Source: Magnetospirillaceae bacterium | Lineage (GTDB): Bacteria > Pseudomonadota > Alphaproteobacteria > Rhodospirillales > Magnetospirillaceae | Length of the DNA stretch: 64,000 nt | NCBI GenBank assembly: GCA_041685145.1 | Contig: JAWLGJ010000007.1 | Span: forward strand, 3,513-67,512 | Reading direction: 5' to 3' | In this document: one piece after another, positions 40,813 to 62,819 of the stretch | How the letters are laid out: every line of letters starts with the position of its first letter | How positions within the stretch are numbered: the stretch's first letter is position 1 | Notes under the pieces: generated by a model | Told to the model about the DNA's origin: nothing | The model's input: the letters and a program-made list of their open reading frames with translations, nothing else | Database searches by the model: none | Translations under genes and position numbers: made by a program

Positions 40813-41568
40813 ATGGCTTTGCTTGAGATCAAGAACCTGCACGCCAACGTCGATGGCACCGAGATCCTGAAGGGCATCAATCTGGTGGTCGAGCCCGGCG
40901 AGGTGCACGCCGTCATGGGGCCCAACGGCTCGGGCAAGAGCACCCTGTCCTATGTGCTGGCCGGGCGCGAGGGCTATGAGGTCACCGCCGGCGAGGTGCT
41001 CTACAAGGGCACGAACCTGCTGGAGATGGCGCCGGAGGAGCGCGCCCGCGAAGGCGTCTTCCTGGCCTTCCAGTACCCGGTCGAGATTCCCGGCGTCGGC
41101 ACCATGACCTTCCTGCGCACCGCCGTGAACGCCGTGCGCAAGCATCGCGGCCTGCCCGAATACGACGCCATGCAGTTCCTGAAGGTGGTGCGCGAGAAGG
41201 CCAAGGCCCTGAACATCCCCGACGAGATGCTCAAGCGCGCCGTCAACACCGGCTTCTCCGGCGGCGAGAAGAAGCGCGCCGAGGCGTTGCAGGCGGCGCT
41301 GCTGGACCCGGCGATGATGATCCTCGACGAGACCGATTCCGGCCTCGACATCGATGCCCTGCGGCTGGTGGCGGAAAGCTTCGACGCCATGCGCGACGCG
41401 CAGCGCTCGATGCTGGTCATCACCCATTACCAGCGCATCCTGCACTATCTGGTCCCCGACAAGGTGCATGTGCTGGCGCGCGGGCAGATCATGCGCTCGG
41501 GCGGCAAGGAGCTGGCCGAGGAGCTGGAGGCCAAGGGCTACGCCGAATTCGTGGGCGAGGCGGCATGA
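40813..41568 (+). CDS. sufC: Fe-S cluster assembly ATPase SufC
   Basis: GPNGSGKSTL Walker A, FSGGEKKR signature, ILDETDSGLD. Confidence 0.96.
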   Translation: MALLEIKNLHANVDGTEILKGINLVVEPGEVHAVMGPNGSGKSTLSYVLAGREGYEVTAGEVLYKGTNLLEMAPEERAREGVFLAFQYPVEIPGVGTMTFLRTAVNAVRKHRGLPEYDAMQFLKVVREKAKALNIPDEMLKRAVNTGFSGGEKKRAEALQAALLDPAMMILDETDSGLDIDALRLVAESFDAMRDAQRSMLVITHYQRILHYLVPDKVHVLARGQIMRSGGKELAEELEAKGYAEFVGEAA

Positions 41569-55437: not shown

Positions 55438-55815
55438 CTACTCGATCAATTGGCCGGCCGTTCGCAGATAGACCGGCCCGGTTTGGCCGATGGTCTCGCC
55501 GTCGAAGCTCTCGGAGGCGACGTGAATCTCCTCCAGCATTTCGGCGAGCCCCTGAACCTCCTGGTTGATGCGCCCCAGCGCGTTTTCGATGGTGTAGGTC
55601 AGCTCATGGATGGTGACGAAATCCTCGTCGCTCAGGGTCTCGGCGGCGAGGACGGCGGCGAGGCGTTCGTTGTATTCGGCGAAGTTCGCCACCGCCACCT
55701 CCAGGGTTTCGGCGGGCTTACCCTTGAAATGCTCGGGCCGTTCGTCGGCATGGGCGATGCCGGCGGCAAAAAGCGCCGCCCCCAGGCCCAGGGCATTGAT
55801 CAACCGTCTCATCAT
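55438..55815 (-). CDS. exported helical hypothetical protein
   Basis: GAGAGGAGCA precedes the ATGATG at 55815/55812. Signal peptide MMRRLINALGLGAALFAAGIAHA. Mature part is acidic and helical (HELTYTIENALGRI...). Confidence 0.65.
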   Translation of the reverse strand: MMRRLINALGLGAALFAAGIAHADERPEHFKGKPAETLEVAVANFAEYNERLAAVLAAETLSDEDFVTIHELTYTIENALGRINQEVQGLAEMLEEIHVASESFDGETIGQTGPVYLRTAGQLIE

Positions 55816-56208
55816 TGCTCCTCTCTTCCCATATGCAAATGCGAGGCGATTGCAGTTAAAGCGCAAAAGCGGGCCTCGGGCAAGCCCGAAATCGCGGCGG
55901 GCGGATTAGCCGTCGTAGGGAGTATCGGCACCCCCTTGCGCAGACTGTGCGATCGGCGTCTTGTTGGCATGGGGGCGGGGGTCTCAGGTAAGGGGACAGG
56001 ATTCGGCCGGTCTTCCATCGTTTCGGGTAAGTCGCGGCCATCCTTGCGGGTAGGAAATACAAGGAATTTCTAATGAGTACGCGAGTCGTGCTGGATTCGC
56101 GGGGGCCGTTATGCCAAAAGTTGCCCGACCGCAGTCCGGGTCCAGCCCCGGCGATCCGCGCCCGCCCGCCCGCGACTGCCGCAACAAGACGACTGAGTGG
56201 AGGAGAGC

Positions 56209-58537: not shown

Positions 58538-60139
58538 ATGTCCGAGCCGCTTCGCGACCTTGCCCGTGAATCCAACGCCTGGCCGTTCCAGGAGGCGCGC
58601 GCCCTGCTGGACAAGCGCCTGAAGGGCGGGGCGCCCGAGAAAGGCTTCGTGCTGTTCGAGACCGGCTACGGCCCCTCGGGCCTGCCCCATATCGGCACCT
58701 TCGGCGAGGTGGCGCGCACGGAATGGGTGCGCAACGCCTTCCATCGCCTCGCCCCCGACATTCCCACCAAGCTGTACGCCTTCTCGGACGACATGGACGG
58801 GCTGCGCAAGGTGCCCGACAACATCCCCAACCGCGAGATGGTCGCCCAGCACCTGGGCAAGCCGCTGACCGCCATTCCCGACCCCTTCGGCACGCATGAG
58901 AGCTTCGGCCACCACAACAACGCCCGCCTGCGCGCCTTCCTCGATTCCTTCGGCTTCGAATACGAGTTCCAAAGCGCCACCGACTGCTACCAGAGCGGCC
59001 GCTTCGACGACGCGCTGCTGGCGGTGCTGCGCCATTACGACGCGGTGATCGACGTCATCCTGCCCACCCTGGGCGAGGAGCGGCGCCAGACCTACAGCCC
59101 CTTCCTGCCCGTCTGCCCGCGCACCGGCCAAGTGTTGCAGGTGCCGGTGGTCGAGCGCGACGCCGAGGCCGGCACCATCGTCTATCGCGACGCGGACGGG
59201 CGGCTGGTCGAGACGCCGGTCACCGGCGGGCGCTGCAAGCTGCAATGGAAGTGCGACTGGGCCATGCGCTGGTACGCGCTGGGTGTCGACTACGAGATGT
59301 CGGGCAAGGATCTGATCCCGTCGGTGGAACTCAGCTCGCGCATCTGCCGCATCCTGGGCGGGCGGCCGCCGCAGAATCTGACCTACGAGCTGTTCCTGGA
59401 CGAGAACGGCCAGAAGATTTCCAAGTCCAAGGGCAACGGCATCGCCGTCGAGGACTGGCTGCGCTACGCCCCGCCGGAGAGCCTGGCGCTGTTCATGTAC
59501 CAGGCGCCCAAGCGCGCCAAGCGGCTGTATTTCGACGTCATCCCCAAGAACGTCGACGACTACCTAACCCATGTCGCCAAGTTCCGCGAACAGGACGCGG
59601 CGGCGCGATTGCAGAACCCCGCCTGGCACATCCACGACGGCGCGCCGCCGGCCGAGGCCGAATCGCCGCTCGGCTTCGGGCTGCTGCTCAACCTGGCCAG
59701 CGTCTGCCACGCCGAGGAACCGCAGGTGCTGTGGCAGTTCATCCGCCGCTACGCACCCGAGGCCGGCCCCGCCACCCACCCGCTGCTGGACCGGCTGGTC
59801 GGCCACGCCGTCGCCTATTACCAGGACTTCGTCAAGCCGGCGAAGACCTACCGCGCGGCCACCCCCGCCGAGGCGGCGGCGCTGGCGGAACTGGCAGCGG
59901 AACTGCGGGCGCTGGGGCCGGGGGCGGAAGCCGAGGCCTTCCAGAACGCCGTCTACGAGGTCGGCAAGCGCCACGCCGAGACCTTCCCCGACCTCAAGGC
60001 CTGGTTCAAGGCGCTGTACCAGATTCTGCTGGGGCAGGAGCAGGGGCCGCGCATGGGCTCGTTCATCGCCCTCTATGGCGCGGCGGAATCCATCGCGCTG
60101 CTGGAAAAGGCGGCGGCGGGGGAGGATTTGTCGGGCTGA
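58538..60139 (+). CDS. lysK: class I lysine--tRNA ligase
   Basis: HIGH-type motif [10 protein letters not shown] and KMSKS-type KISKSKGNG. Length and pattern match the class-I LysRS found in alphaproteobacteria and archaea. Confidence 0.92.
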
Positions 60140-60144
60140 GGGCC

Positions 60145-60900
60145 TCAGCCCTGGCGCATCGCCCCGATGCCGGCGCCCACCTCCAGGCCGCCGAACCAGT
60201 CGAGGAAACGGCGCACGTCCTCGCCCCGGAACAGCTTGCCGTGCTGCGGCGCCATGATGTCGATGTCGAGGCGCGAGACCATGCCGATCCAGGCGTCGCG
60301 CGCCTGCGGCGAGCCCATCCAGCGGCGGTGGAAGCCTTCCATATAGGCGACGTGGCGGTTGAAGTCGTCGACGAACAGGCTGTCGGCCTCCTCCGGCGGC
60401 ACCAGGGCGGCGCCGATGTCGCCGCTGAACAGCACCCGCGCCTTGGGGTCATAGACGACATAGCAGCCCGGCGAGTGCAGATAGTGGGCCGGCAGGATCT
60501 GCAGGGCGACACCGCCCAGGCGCACGGTGGTTCCCTCGTCGGGAATCTTCACCATGCGGGCGTCGCGGTCGAAATGGCTGATGAAGCCGGTCCACATCCA
60601 CGGCACCAGCACCTCGAGATTCGCGCCGCACATCCGCCGCCACAGCGGCAGCGACGACGACACGTCGGGATCCTGGTGCGACAGGAACAGATGGCTGATG
60701 CTGTCCGCCGGCACCTCCTGCGTCAGCGCCGCCAGCATGGCCGGGAACAGTTCCATACCGCCCGGATCCAGCAGCATCGTCTGCCCGCCGACGCAGACGA
60801 CGCACTGGTTGGTATCGATGATGTTGTCGGGGCGGTCGGGGTCGCGCGCGAAGACCAGCCAGCGGTGGTCGCCGTCGCGGTAGATGGTGCTGCCTTTCAT
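60145..60900 (-). CDS. metallo-beta-lactamase-fold protein resembling the di-iron domain of flavodiiron proteins (ODP-like)
   Basis: 251 aa. FDP-like ligand pattern SH75-Q-D77-P-D79, LH142SPG, FSGD161IG, PQH220G; the fourth residue of the HxExDH motif is Val. GGGAG 8 nt before the ATG. 36-nt gap to the upstream gene. Confidence 0.7.
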   Translation of the reverse strand: MKGSTIYRDGDHRWLVFARDPDRPDNIIDTNQCVVCVGGQTMLLDPGGMELFPAMLAALTQEVPADSISHLFLSHQDPDVSSSLPLWRRMCGANLEVLVPWMWTGFISHFDRDARMVKIPDEGTTVRLGGVALQILPAHYLHSPGCYVVYDPKARVLFSGDIGAALVPPEEADSLFVDDFNRHVAYMEGFHRRWMGSPQARDAWIGMVSRLDIDIMAPQHGKLFRGEDVRRFLDWFGGLEVGAGIGAMRQG

Positions 60901-60936
60901 GCCCTGCTCCCTGTCCCCGATTGCTGGCCCGTTGCC

Positions 60937-61638
60937 TCAGCCATGCGCGCGCCGGCAGGCCGCCGCCACGGCGCGGCCTTCGTCCTGGGCGCGGCGCACG
61001 GCCGTGCCCGCCGTGGCCGTCATGTCGCGAAGTTGCCCGACATAGTCGCGCATGGTCTGGGCGACGGTGCGGAATTCGGGCTCGTGGCGGCCGGCGCCCG
61101 AGGCCTCGATGGCGATGTTGGTGGCGATGCTGTCCGAGGCCGACACCACGCTTTCCACAGCCCGAGCCTGGGCGGCGAGGGCCTCGACGGAATCGACCAT
61201 GCCCAGCACCGTTTCCTCCATGCTGGCCATCAGCCCCGCCTGCGCCGCGCTCACCGCCTCCAGCGAGCGCCCCTGCCGCTCCAGGGCGGCGACGGTGCGC
61301 TCCATCAGCCGCAGCTCGTGGATGAAGCGCAGCCCGGCGGCGGCGAAGCGGTAGCTGTCATGCATCACCGCCGCGCAATCGGTCTGCGCCTGCGCCAGGC
61401 GGTTGACCAGTTCGCGGGTGTACTGGGTCAACGCCCGCACGGCGCGGCCGGCGTCGCCCGCGCGCCCCGCCACCAATTCGGCGTTCAGCGACAGAATGCG
61501 CAGGTTCTCGGCAAGTTCCTGAAGGTCGGTAAAGGCGTGGAAGGCCTTGACGGTGTCTCCGAACAGGACGGAGACCCGCGCCTCCAGCGCGTCCACCCCC
61601 CCGCCACGCTCGCCTACGCCGCGGGCGCCCTCGGCCAT
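60937..61638 (-). CDS. soluble all-helical protein with two chemoreceptor (MCP) signalling-tip-like motifs
   Basis: 233 aa, GGGAG SD. LRILSLNAELVAGRAGDAGRAVRALTQYTRELV and SIATNIAIEASGAGRHEPEFRTVAQTMRDYV each resemble LLALNAAIEAARAGE.GRGFAVVA.EVR.LA. No TM segment. Confidence 0.65.
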   Translation of the reverse strand: MAEGARGVGERGGGVDALEARVSVLFGDTVKAFHAFTDLQELAENLRILSLNAELVAGRAGDAGRAVRALTQYTRELVNRLAQAQTDCAAVMHDSYRFAAAGLRFIHELRLMERTVAALERQGRSLEAVSAAQAGLMASMEETVLGMVDSVEALAAQARAVESVVSASDSIATNIAIEASGAGRHEPEFRTVAQTMRDYVGQLRDMTATAGTAVRRAQDEGRAVAAACRRAHG

Positions 61639-61664
61639 GCAATGCTCCCTCTTCGTACCAAAGT

Positions 61665-61693
61665 ACCCTATCGGAATTTTTCCCGAATTGTAA
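61665..61693 (-). promoter_or_regulatory. candidate promoter for the MCP-like/ODP-like operon, with a palindrome in the spacer
   Basis: Minus strand reads TTACAA (61693-61688), 17-nt spacer, TAGGGT (61670-61665). The spacer holds the imperfect palindrome TCGGGAA-aaa-TTCCGA (61671-61686). Confidence 0.3.
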
Positions 61694-61760
61694 GGGAATG
61701 CGCCATCTGTTCAGGACGGGTGCTTTCGGCTAGGGTCCGGCCCACGGTGGGAGGCCCGAA

Positions 61761-62819
61761 GTGATCGACACCTATCCCCTGACGGGACCATTGCTGCGGC
61801 TGTTGGACCCCGAACGGGCGCACGCGCTGGCGGTGTGGGCGGCCGCGCGCGGCCTGACGCCGCGCCAGCGCGCGCCCGACCCGCCGCTGCTGGCCTGTCG
61901 ATTGTGGGGGCGCCGCTTCCCGAACCCCATCGGCCTGGCGGCGGGCTTCGACAAGGACGCCCGCGCCGCCGACGCCCTGCTGGACATGGGCTTCGGCTTC
62001 GTCGAAATAGGCACCGTGACCCCAAAGCCGCAGCCCGGCAACCCGCGCCCGCGCATGTTCCGCCTGCGCGAGGACGGGGCGGTCATCAACCGCATGGGCT
62101 TCAACAGCGGCGGCGCGGCGGCGGCGGCGGCGCGCCTGGCGCGACGGCAACGGCGCGGCGTCGTCGGCGTCAATCTGGGCAAGAACAAGGACACCGCCGA
62201 CGCCGCCGCCGATTACGAAAGCGGCGTCGAGGCCTTGGCGCCGCTGGCCGATTATGTGGTCATCAACGTCTCGTCACCGAACACGCCGGGGCTGCGGGCC
62301 CTGCAGGGGCGGGCGCCGCTGGAGGCGCTGGTGGCGCGGGTGCGCGCCGCCCTCGACGCGCGGGTGCCCGAGGCGACGCCGCCCTTGCTGCTGAAGGTCG
62401 CCCCCGACCTGACCGACGACGACCGCGGCGACATCGCCGCCGTGGCGCTGGCGGGGGGGCTGGATGGCCTGATCGTCACCAACACCACCGTCGGGCGGCC
62501 GCCGTCGCTGCGCTCGCGCCACCGCGACGAGGTTGGCGGCCTCAGCGGCCGGCCGCTGTTCGCCCTGTCCACCGAGGTATTGTCCGACCTCTACCGCCGC
62601 ACCGAGGCCCGCCTGCCCATCATCGGCGTCGGCGGCATCGCCTCCGGCGCCGACGCCTATGCCAAGATTCGCGCCGGCGCCTCGCTGGTGCAGCTTTACA
62701 CCGCCCTCGTCTATCAGGGGCCGGCGCTGGTGGGGCGGATCAAGACCGACCTGGCGCGGCGGCTGGCGGCGGACGGCTTCACCTCCGTCGCCGAGGCCGT
62801 CGGCGCCGACCACCGCTGA
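61761..62819 (+). CDS. pyrD: quinone-dependent dihydroorotate dehydrogenase (class 2)
   Basis: GGGAGG 6 nt before GTG 61761. GLAAGFDK, GFGFVEIGTVTP, NVSSPNTPGLR, GVGGI. Confidence 0.93.
   Translation: MIDTYPLTGPLLRLLDPERAHALAVWAAARGLTPRQRAPDPPLLACRLWGRRFPNPIGLAAGFDKDARAADALLDMGFGFVEIGTVTPKPQPGNPRPRMFRLREDGAVINRMGFNSGGAAAAAARLARRQRRGVVGVNLGKNKDTADAAADYESGVEALAPLADYVVINVSSPNTPGLRALQGRAPLEALVARVRAALDARVPEATPPLLLKVAPDLTDDDRGDIAAVALAGGLDGLIVTNTTVGRPPSLRSRHRDEVGGLSGRPLFALSTEVLSDLYRRTEARLPIIGVGGIASGADAYAKIRAGASLVQLYTALVYQGPALVGRIKTDLARRLAADGFTSVAEAVGADHR

Follow-up and report, generated by a model that had tools for sequence, protein, structure and literature searches.

Two adjacent minus-strand genes in a 64,000-nt stretch of a Magnetospirillaceae genome (the window, meaning the whole stretch that was analysed) encode a 251-aa protein with a metallo-beta-lactamase (MBL) fold and a 233-aa helical partner. 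They raise the question of whether they form an alphaproteobacterial version of the ODP sensor and soluble chemoreceptor pair known from Treponema denticola and Thermotoga maritima, as a first-pass annotation of the sequence had proposed. ODP is described in PMC7666581 as an O2 sensor for chemotaxis that is genetically coupled to a sensor-less MCP homologue modulating CheA, and an operon of ODP plus MCP has already been published (Muok et al. 2019, PNAS), according to the summary given in PMC7319448.

The arrangement of the genes is that of a compact operon. The partner gene (60937..61638, minus strand, 233 aa), taken from the ORF list and identified by Pfam and profile matches, lies upstream of the ODP gene (60145..60900, minus strand, 251 aa), likewise from the ORF list and matched by the full model of Pfam PF19583. 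Direct reading of the sequence places a 36-nt spacer between the partner stop codon (60937-60939) and the ATG of the ODP gene at 60900, and each gene has a GGGAG Shine-Dalgarno box 6 nt 5' of its ATG (61645..61649 for the partner gene and 60907..60911, within the spacer, for the ODP gene, both on the minus strand); the first-pass annotation had noted both the 36-nt spacer and the GGGAG boxes. The flanking genes encode a class I LysRS (lysK, 58538..60139, plus strand) and PyrD (61761..62819, plus strand), and the wider surroundings are of a housekeeping nature, with genes for a leuC-type aconitase, panE, rplS, trmD, rimM, rpsP, ffh, gap, pgk and a HAD hydrolase. The partner gene and pyrD share a divergent intergenic region of 122 nt (61639..61760), which presumably contains the operon promoter. 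A promoter candidate had been placed in this region, which was described as AT-rich; its GC content is indeed lower (54-59% versus about 71%), but no sigma-70-like site passed the scan, nor did any intrinsic terminator. At the other end of the operon, a hairpin read from the sequence, GGGCTGAG-GCC-CTCAGCCC (60133..60151), extends across both stop codons where the ODP and lysK genes converge; it is without a T-run and the terminator scan makes no call there, and it may possibly serve as a bidirectional transcript end.

Neither che genes nor paralogs of the pair were found in the 64-kb window using Pfam on the ORFs and tblastn, which agrees with the earlier description of a housekeeping setting away from any che cluster. 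The Pfam scan treated the ORFs in bulk, listing the best 25 families, with the 10 ORFs nearest the pair searched singly, and the tblastn result for CheY and CheW is a weak negative. Another ORF of 251 aa (40813..41568) was considered as a second ODP copy and dropped, as tblastn revealed no similarity.

The 251-aa protein is clearly an ODP. It matched the Pfam ODP family (PF19583) with an E-value of 3.7e-69 and 232.9 bits (cutoff 27.2), with its residues 28-221 covering the model completely (1-194/194), and a PDB search retrieved the ODP structures of T. maritima (6qrq, 1.3e-66) and T. denticola (6qnm, 6.6e-58), with flavodiiron proteins at 1e-10 or weaker. Lactamase_B was the sole other Pfam match, and no flavodoxin domain was detected by Pfam, as already noted from the letters of the sequence. 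A grouping with ordinary hydrolases had been named as an outcome that would speak against an ODP-like protein; the sequence scores favour ODP instead. In a genome scan, the closest ODP match was merely 65% identical.

The metal site was assessed in an alignment of 83 ODP sequences, including both crystallised ODPs. The ligand roles of these residues are taken over from flavodiiron homology, so they are referred to here as candidate ligands. All six residues listed by the first-pass annotation are present. The first metal-ligand motif, H75-Q-D77-P-D79 (codons at 60664..60678), H142 (60475..60477) and D161, the candidate bridging ligand in an SGDIGAA motif (60418..60420), occur in 83/83 sequences, and H220, in a PQHG motif (60241..60243), in 82/83, with one gap; all codons are on the minus strand, and both the T. 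maritima and the T. denticola ODP have the same residues at HQDPD, H142, D161 and H220. An altered metal site had been suspected from Glu-to-Asp and His-to-Val changes in the first motif. These changes hold relative to flavodiiron proteins but not relative to ODPs and, given that the candidate ligands are invariant across ODPs, crystallised members included, the supposed alteration is simply typical of the family. Judged by its sequence, the 251-aa protein belongs to the ODPs proper and has the complete candidate ligand set of the family.

Alpha- and Gammaproteobacteria keep the ODP and partner genes together as a unit. In the co-occurrence analysis that had been suggested for this pair, a partner homologue was located directly upstream of ODP on the same strand in all 77 proteobacterial loci with room for it, and reciprocally an ODP gene was found downstream of 3/3 partner homologues. 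The two genes are less than 50 nt apart or overlapping in 65 out of 74 loci, and the relatives of the pair include those of Magnetospirillum, methanotrophs and Pseudoalteromonas. Two gene orders are known for ODP-MCP operons, according to PMC7319448. In the four loci from Thermotogota, Nitrospirota, Synergistota and Aquificota, ODP comes first with the partner downstream, and these four partners have 276-295 aa with one central canonical tip, at aa 137-151. The orphan position away from che genes is not peculiar to the window genome, being shared by most related loci.

Homology of the partner to the MCP kinase-control tip is clear at the profile level. The 233-aa protein itself matched Pfam MCPsignal with an E-value of 8.1e-6 and 26.2 bits, under the gathering cutoff of 34.6; this was its sole Pfam match, with no TM, HAMP or ligand-binding domain found. 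MCPsignal recognizes 62 of the 78 partner family members at E ≤ 0.01, the best merely at 1.3e-9, and the partner-family profile searched against PDB retrieved 3g6b (TM14) as the best match (4.5e-13), with TM1143 at 3.7e-11. A protein in public data (P0001) is 100% identical to the partner, and relatives are named 'chemotaxis protein'. The earlier view of the partner as an all-helical soluble protein with chemoreceptor signalling-tip motifs is thus sustained by these matches and by an AlphaFold model.

What sets this otherwise standard ODP operon apart is a single oddity, the presence of two tandem tips in the partner instead of one. Tip repeat 1 (aa 49-78, LSLNAELVAGRAGDAGRAVRALTQYTRELV; 61405..61494, minus strand) aligns with the TM14 and TM1143 tips, and tip repeat 2 (aa 171-200, IATNIAIEASGAGRHEPEFRTVAQTMRDYV; 61039..61128, minus strand) was recognized by hhalign of the N-terminal against the C-terminal half and by a profile of the C-terminal half. 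Sequence comparison thus indicates that the partner holds the MCP tip hairpin twice in tandem, in diverged copies of about 100 aa each, and has no adaptation region; the methylation consensus [ASTG][ASTG]xx[EQ][EQ]xx[ASTG][ASTG] was absent from all 78 proteobacterial partners, that of the window included. An MCP has a single mid-chain hairpin tip flanked by long symmetric arms. The window partner departs from this, with tip 1 at aa ~60 of 233, the second motif at aa ~181 and arms of only about 45-58 residues. The most conserved stretches of the partner are exactly the two tip motifs. Across the 78 partners, N52, A53, R59, A60, G61 and T71 of tip 1 are invariant or at least 90% conserved, and conservation also reaches at least 90% at E178, A179 and L154. 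On our presumed mapping to the Tsr tip, E385 is replaced by V and F396 by V in tip 1, and R388 by G in tip 2, which also holds a proline. With canonical residues lost in both repeats, binding to CheA/CheW may be weakened or changed.

A true ODP accompanied by an MCP-tip-derived soluble protein, the two co-occurring everywhere examined, bears out the proposed sensor-receptor pair, and it is likely that the two-gene operon is a soluble O2/ferrous-iron sensing module of the ODP type. By analogy with the T. denticola and T. maritima systems, the di-iron centre of ODP would bind O2 or Fe(II), and ODP would bind the partner according to its O2/Fe(II) state. The partner would then offer its MCP-tip surfaces to CheA/CheW, a complex whose genes would lie elsewhere in the genome, and could bias kinase activity and so drive aerotaxis or iron-taxis.

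The alternative that survives best, which we regard as unlikely, is that the ODP sensor has an output other than chemotaxis, the degenerate double-tip partner being uncoupled from CheA/CheW. It would then compete for array components or act as a decoy for them, or else relay the O2/Fe signal into another pathway, for example c-di-GMP turnover, partner-switching or sigma-factor control. Its appeal lies partly in the partner, with its sub-threshold MCPsignal score and the canonical residues gone from both tips, and with gamma-type relatives that mostly escape Pfam recognition and are now 'hypothetical proteins'. Genomic context points the same way: most related loci are orphan pairs without che genes, the recurrent neighbours encode receiver domains, GGDEF/EAL and SpoIIE+STAS+HATPase_c_2, and two loci (L085 and L086) have PAS-GGDEF-EAL genes on either side of ODP. 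PMC7319448 also describes ODPs as recruited to various signal-transduction pathways. However, the two tip motifs are the best-kept parts of the partner, and such a conservation peak is expected if the tip-binding interface for CheA/CheW is retained. Moreover, the sole cluster context found is Che-like, the pair closing a CheD-CheB-MCP-STAS-REC/PP2C cluster in Methylococcales, and the characterised ODP partners modulate CheA according to PMC7666581.

In a further alternative, the 'second tip' would be a coiled-coil look-alike and the partner an asymmetric or truncated single-tip MCP fragment with a generic helical extension. Coiled-coil proteins are indeed prone to spurious profile matches, the C-terminal half of the window partner by itself matched MCPsignal only at E 0.12, and a neutral single-tip probe found one tip in 27/78 partners, among them the window partner, where it saw tip 1 alone. 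The same probe detected two tips in 49/78 proteobacterial partners and a single central tip in 4/4 ODP partners from outside the Proteobacteria, and several other lines of evidence make a look-alike quite improbable. The N-terminal and C-terminal halves align in hhalign with a probability of 89% and an E-value of 2e-6, their motifs in register. When a profile built from the C-terminal halves of the family was searched against the whole PDB, the first 10 of 10 matches were MCPs (2ch7 at 4.9e-8 and 3g6b at 1.9e-7), with the tip 2 motif in register on the tip of the matched MCPs. The gamma-type tip 2, TEATRAGD....VVADEV, is close to the canonical IEAARAGE....VVADEV, and the family-wide conservation of E178, A179 and L154 also argues against a chance resemblance.

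Fold models bear on both sides of this question. The AlphaFold model of the window partner (pLDDT 91.7) is all-helical, with a continuous helix through tip 1 (aa 39-121) in place of the hairpin expected there, and turns solely at aa 122-126 and 180-182, the latter being tip 2. In contrast, the model of a gamma-type relative (pLDDT 88, pTM 0.77) turns exactly at both tips and folds into a single-chain four-helix bundle whose two tips share an end. The turn at tip 2 is therefore predicted in both models. The four-helix pseudo-dimer fold was sought in the window partner's own model and appeared in that of the gamma-type relative only. A Foldseek comparison with PDB returned nothing significant for either model, the best matches being generic single-chain four-helix bundles at E > 1e-3. 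From the gamma-type model we infer that the tip repeats may fold back into a single-chain four-helix bundle mimicking the tip of an MCP homodimer. We tentatively put forward, as a possibility that falls somewhat short of even chances, that in the proteobacterial partner two diverged tip hairpins make up a minimal, naturally occurring single-chain pseudo-dimer of the kinase-control tip (~205-235 aa, no adaptation region), which docks into or caps CheA/CheW arrays under ODP control.

The weakest alternative, that the 251-aa protein is an ordinary MBL-fold hydrolase or a truncated flavodiiron O2/NO reductase serving detoxification, with incidental adjacency to the helical gene, can draw on a Lactamase_B match (2.2e-14) and weak flavodiiron similarity but is highly improbable, with ODP-specific scores about 55 orders of magnitude above those for flavodiiron or generic MBL proteins, no flavodoxin domain, a ligand set of the ODP type and a pairing kept in 77/77 loci of two proteobacterial classes. 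The readings of this protein as a zinc MBL hydrolase and as a flavodiiron reductase were dropped, the latter because of the missing flavodoxin domain and an E-value of 1e-10 compared with 1e-66 for ODP.

Few sensors that respond directly to O2/Fe(II) are known to provide input to bacterial chemotaxis; ODP is among them and, to our knowledge, has been studied solely in a spirochete and Thermotoga. The window locus and its 77 relatives show that the ODP module is common in Alpha- and Gammaproteobacteria, where it has a different, short double-tip partner. If the partner does prove to be a single-chain mimic of the receptor dimer tip, it would constitute a naturally occurring kinase-control unit of minimal size, of use in structural studies of how receptors couple to CheA/CheW and in understanding aerotaxis in microaerophiles, and the function-less class of 'single-chain MCPs' would gain a defined sensory input. 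It would also represent a second widespread ODP signalling architecture, most gammaproteobacterial members of which are now annotated as hypothetical; those gamma-type proteins without a Pfam domain could be renamed MCP-tip-derived ODP partners.

Among known systems, flavodiiron proteins (FprA, rubredoxin:oxygen oxidoreductase and flavorubredoxin) have an MBL-fold di-iron domain and a ligand spacing in common with the 251-aa protein. They differ in carrying HxExDH instead of HxDxD-V and in having a flavodoxin domain, their similarity to it is 1e-10 or weaker, and the 251-aa protein is a predicted sensor and not a reductase.

F9 chemosensory systems were reportedly treated by Wuichet and Zhulin in 2010. 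Receptors of the DosM type, with a double signalling domain, and natural soluble 'single-chain' MCPs occur in F9 systems, as in VC1403 of V. cholerae and in R. centenum (PMC7534058, PMC4692393), and the functions of such natural single-chain forms are unknown according to PMC4692393. DosM, with two full-length signalling domains, forms an extended rod that ends in a tip on either side, bridges two CheA/CheW baseplates and is encoded in F9 che clusters (PMC7534058). Like DosM, the window partner combines two MCP signalling-tip modules in one soluble chain, but these are tip subdomains only, of ~100 aa each, rather than full signalling domains. Unlike DosM, the gamma-type model has its two tips together at one end; the window model is different again, its tip 1 being straight. 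Finally, the window gene is tied to ODP and not to an F9 cluster, and no che cluster was found in the window.

Engineered single-chain receptors are also said to have been reported by Greenswag et al. in 2015. In single-chain Tsr and Tar constructs, kinase-control modules are joined covalently into pseudo-dimers, and these retain array formation and the control of CheA (Mowery et al. 2015, PMC4692393); given that such receptors are functional, the predicted single-chain bundle could be functional too. Those artificial constructs, however, are of full length and comprise adaptation regions and two identical subunits, whereas the window repeats are diverged, each keeping a complementary subset of tip residues.

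The closest comparison is with the ODP/receptor pairs named in PMC7666581 and PMC7319448, TDE2498/TDE2496 of T. denticola and ODP/TM14 of T. maritima. The window shares with them the sensor family, identical ligand motifs and the arrangement of a stand-alone di-iron MBL-fold protein beside a small soluble MCP-like protein without TM or sensing domain; unlike in those systems, the window partner falls under the MCPsignal cutoff and has no che genes nearby. A kinship with TM14-type receptors, which the first-pass annotation had suggested examining, is upheld insofar as TM14 (3g6b) is the best PDB relative of the window partner, and fails insofar as the latter is shorter (233 versus 276-295 aa), with two diverged tips and not one canonical central tip. 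The TM14-type description (one mid-chain NAxIEAARAGE.GRGF tip, ODP upstream) fits the partners of Thermotoga, Thermodesulfovibrio, Aminobacterium and Hydrogenivirga but not that of the window, where the order of Thermotogota-type loci is reversed, with the partner first and then ODP. In sum, the locus encodes a system of a known kind whose receptor partner is a variant.

The 251-aa product encoded at 60145..60900 on the minus strand covers the whole Pfam model of the beta-lactamase family of oxygen-binding di-iron proteins (ODP; PF19583) with an E-value of 3.7e-69, and it matches the solved ODPs of Thermotoga maritima (6qrq, 1.3e-66) and Treponema denticola (6qnm, 6.6e-58). Flavodiiron proteins match it at 1e-10 or weaker, and the NCBIfam flavorubredoxin model at 1.8e-4. 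Across an alignment of this protein, 80 genomic homologues and both crystallised ODPs, H75, D77, D79, H142, D161 and H220 are invariant (H220 in 82 of the 83 sequences, with one gap), and the HQDPD-V motif is the same in both solved ODPs. The Glu-to-Asp and His-to-Val changes that the first-pass annotation had taken for an altered metal site are real relative to flavodiiron proteins but, given the identical motif and invariant ligands, they constitute the normal ODP signature, and the site is not altered. Judged by its sequence, the protein is a true ODP and a plain member of the family.

ORF reading places this gene and the upstream gene of its 233-aa helical partner (60937..61638) on the minus strand exactly as first annotated, with a gap of 36 nt in the sequence between them and GGGAG at a 6-nt spacer before both start codons (61645-61649 for the partner and 60907-60911 for the ODP). 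The class I lysyl-tRNA synthetase gene lysK, on the plus strand, converges on the ODP gene and ends at 60139, while pyrD starts at 61761 as the divergent flank of the partner gene. A hairpin at 60133..60151 (GGGCTGAG-GCC-CTCAGCCC, stem of 8 bp, loop of 3 nt) lies where the two convergent genes end, its arms including the ODP stop codon (60145-60147, minus strand) and that of lysK (60137-60139, plus strand); it has no T-run and is therefore not a classical terminator. The divergent region for which a promoter candidate was proposed has a GC content of 54-59% against about 71% around it. A consensus scan yielded neither a sigma-70-like promoter nor an intrinsic terminator, so the promoter there stays a candidate.

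Using the ODP sequence for a genome scan, we recovered 80 loci from Rhodospirillaceae, Magnetospirillum, Terasakiella, two Planctomycetota bins and many Gammaproteobacteria, including Methylococcales, Pseudoalteromonas, Cellvibrionaceae and Bacterioplanes. Wherever a locus extends far enough upstream (77 loci), a same-strand ORF of 200-310 aa directly precedes the ODP gene, and all 77 ORFs are homologous to the window partner (phmmer recognised 56 of them, one profile iteration raised this to 75, and tblastn added the remaining two). Of 74 loci, 65 have the two genes overlapping or less than 50 nt apart, as is typical of an operon. Reciprocally, three partner homologues each had an ODP gene immediately downstream (3/3), so the co-occurrence check suggested by the first-pass annotation bears out the pair in both directions. 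One of these three, a metagenomic locus whose partner is 58% identical (L082, 5612..9568), has the order HAD hydrolase, pyrD, (DUF952), partner and ODP, the same synteny as the window, which indicates that the insertion beside pyrD predates the window genome.

The neighbours of the pair differ from lineage to lineage. In Methylococcales and methanotrophic symbionts, it stands at the end of a Che-like cluster composed of CheD, CheB, MCP, STAS, REC-PP2C-HATPase_c_2, partner and ODP. In this cluster (L047, 70..6729; also L030, L048, L052, L060 and L078), the MCP has 401 aa and a 566-aa REC-PP2C(SpoIIE)-HATPase_c_2 protein precedes the pair, an arrangement that points to a chemosensory pathway whose output is partner-switching. 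Other loci, the window among them, are orphan pairs beside housekeeping genes. In the window, the genes towards one side are a leuC-type aconitase gene, panE, rplS, trmD, rimM, rpsP, ffh, a DUF6746 protein gene, gap and pgk, those towards the other pyrD and a HAD hydrolase gene; the small DUF6746 protein (55441..55866, minus strand, E-value 9e-43) is encoded between ffh and gap. Pfam searches, itemised for part of the ORFs, and tblastn, whose negative result with the CheY and CheW queries is weak, found no che genes and no paralogues of either protein in the 64-kb window. The significance given to the missing che genes was overstated, as other loci are also orphan pairs. Some gammaproteobacterial loci (L083, 266..3768; also L063 and L071) continue after the pair with BolA, thioredoxin and ferrochelatase, iron- or redox-related neighbours of an Fe/O2 sensor.

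The partner alone matches Pfam MCPsignal with an E-value of 8.1e-6 (26.2 bits, under the gathering score of 34.6), and its best PDB match is 3g6b/3g67 (E-value 0.012), deposited as 'methyl-accepting chemotaxis protein', which we take to be TM14. A profile of 78 partners reached 3g6b at 4.5e-13 and TM1143 at 3.7e-11. On these profile matches the partner is MCP-tip-derived, confirming the chemoreceptor motifs noted initially and, together with the ODP assignment, the original identification of the locus as an ODP-type sensor with an MCP-derived partner. Alphaproteobacterial forms (alpha-type) are named 'chemotaxis protein' or 'methyl-accepting chemotaxis protein' in public sources; gammaproteobacterial forms (gamma-type) mostly lack a Pfam domain and appear there as 'hypothetical protein'. 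About 40 such database clusters (P0122-P0162, 202-229 aa, gamma-type, no Pfam domain) are MCP-tip derived by profile searches. The methylation consensus site is absent from the window partner and every other proteobacterial partner, and each arm spans only about 45-58 residues, so the partner retains only the protein-interaction tip subdomain.

Four tests support the view that the proteobacterial partner carries two tandem tips that arose by duplication. The profile alignment puts the canonical tip motif at aa ~49-66 of 233, not mid-chain, and shows a second conserved block at aa 171-200 (IATNIAIEASGAGRHEPEFRTVAQTMRDYV) that is similar to the MCP tip. Comparison by hhalign of the family alignment of N-terminal halves with that of C-terminal halves gave 89% probability (E-value 2e-6, 77 columns) with both motifs in register. 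Searched against all PDB sequences, a profile of the C-terminal halves alone had none but MCPs as its leading hits (TM1143 at 4.9e-8 and 3g6b at 1.9e-7, followed by PcaY, Tsr and Aer), with the second motif falling on their tip; the gamma-type second tip has the sequence TEATRAGD....VVADEV, where the canonical tip has IEAARAGE....VVADEV. When the 78 proteobacterial partners were searched with a neutral 70-aa probe derived solely from four ODP partners of non-proteobacteria, 49 showed two separate tips. In the window partner, the second tip is weak on its own (C-half MCPsignal E-value 0.12; the probe finds the first tip only), so the double-tip claim rests on family-level evidence.

The AlphaFold model of the window partner, predicted with 63 alpha-type sequences (pLDDT 91.7, pTM 0.81), has helices at 11-35, 39-121, 127-179 and 183-232, turning at tip 2 (aa 171-200) and running as a continuous helix through tip 1 (aa 49-78). 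The gamma-type relative P0148, modelled with 50 mixed sequences (pLDDT 88, pTM 0.77; helices 10-53, 56-108, 111-167 and 171-207), turns exactly at both tips and is predicted to be a single-chain four-helix bundle whose two tips lie at the same end. The models conflict at tip 1, perhaps because AlphaFold is uncertain there, because the protein forms a domain-swapped dimer, or because the clades really differ. Foldseek returned no significant match for either model, only single-chain elongated helical bundles (maquettes, ClyA).

ODP is an O2 sensor in T. denticola chemotaxis, genetically coupled to a sensor-less MCP homologue that modulates CheA, and it influences how CheA is ordered in arrays (PMC7666581); it acts as an auxiliary sensory subunit whose receptor binding is conformation-dependent (PMC6978683). 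The mechanism that homology most favours is one in which the window ODP would sense O2 or Fe(II) at its di-iron centre and would bind the partner, whose tip surfaces may in turn act on a complex of CheA and CheW with genes elsewhere in the genome.

For comparison, we considered ODP loci of other phyla (L084-L087) from Thermotoga sp. KOL6, Thermodesulfovibrio, Aminobacterium and Hydrogenivirga; a PAS-GGDEF-EAL gene is adjacent in two of these loci, L085 and L086. The Thermotoga tip segment equals the 3g6b chain except for one Arg/Lys change. All four partners (276-295 aa) lie downstream of ODP and bear a single canonical NAxIEAARAGE motif, which occupies the chain centre (residues 137-151). In this sample, gene order thus tracks partner architecture (77 loci versus 4), double-tip partners lying upstream of ODP and those with a single central tip downstream, in keeping with the 'two different orders' that PMC7319448 mentions for ODP-MCP operons, the published type to which the present pair belongs. 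Unlike characterised ODP partners, that of the window has two diverged tips on a short chain with no adaptation region, lies upstream of ODP and scores below the Pfam threshold. Two signalling modules in one protein have a precedent in DosM of F9 systems, which is rod-shaped with one tip at either end (PMC7534058). Natural 'single-chain' MCPs have been described, with function unknown, and engineered single-chain Tsr and Tar still signal (PMC4692393); the literature searched, with the primary ODP paper outside it, yielded no link between single-chain or double-domain MCPs and ODP. We therefore rate the make-up of the receptor partner as what is new at this locus, the sensor and the type of pair being already known.
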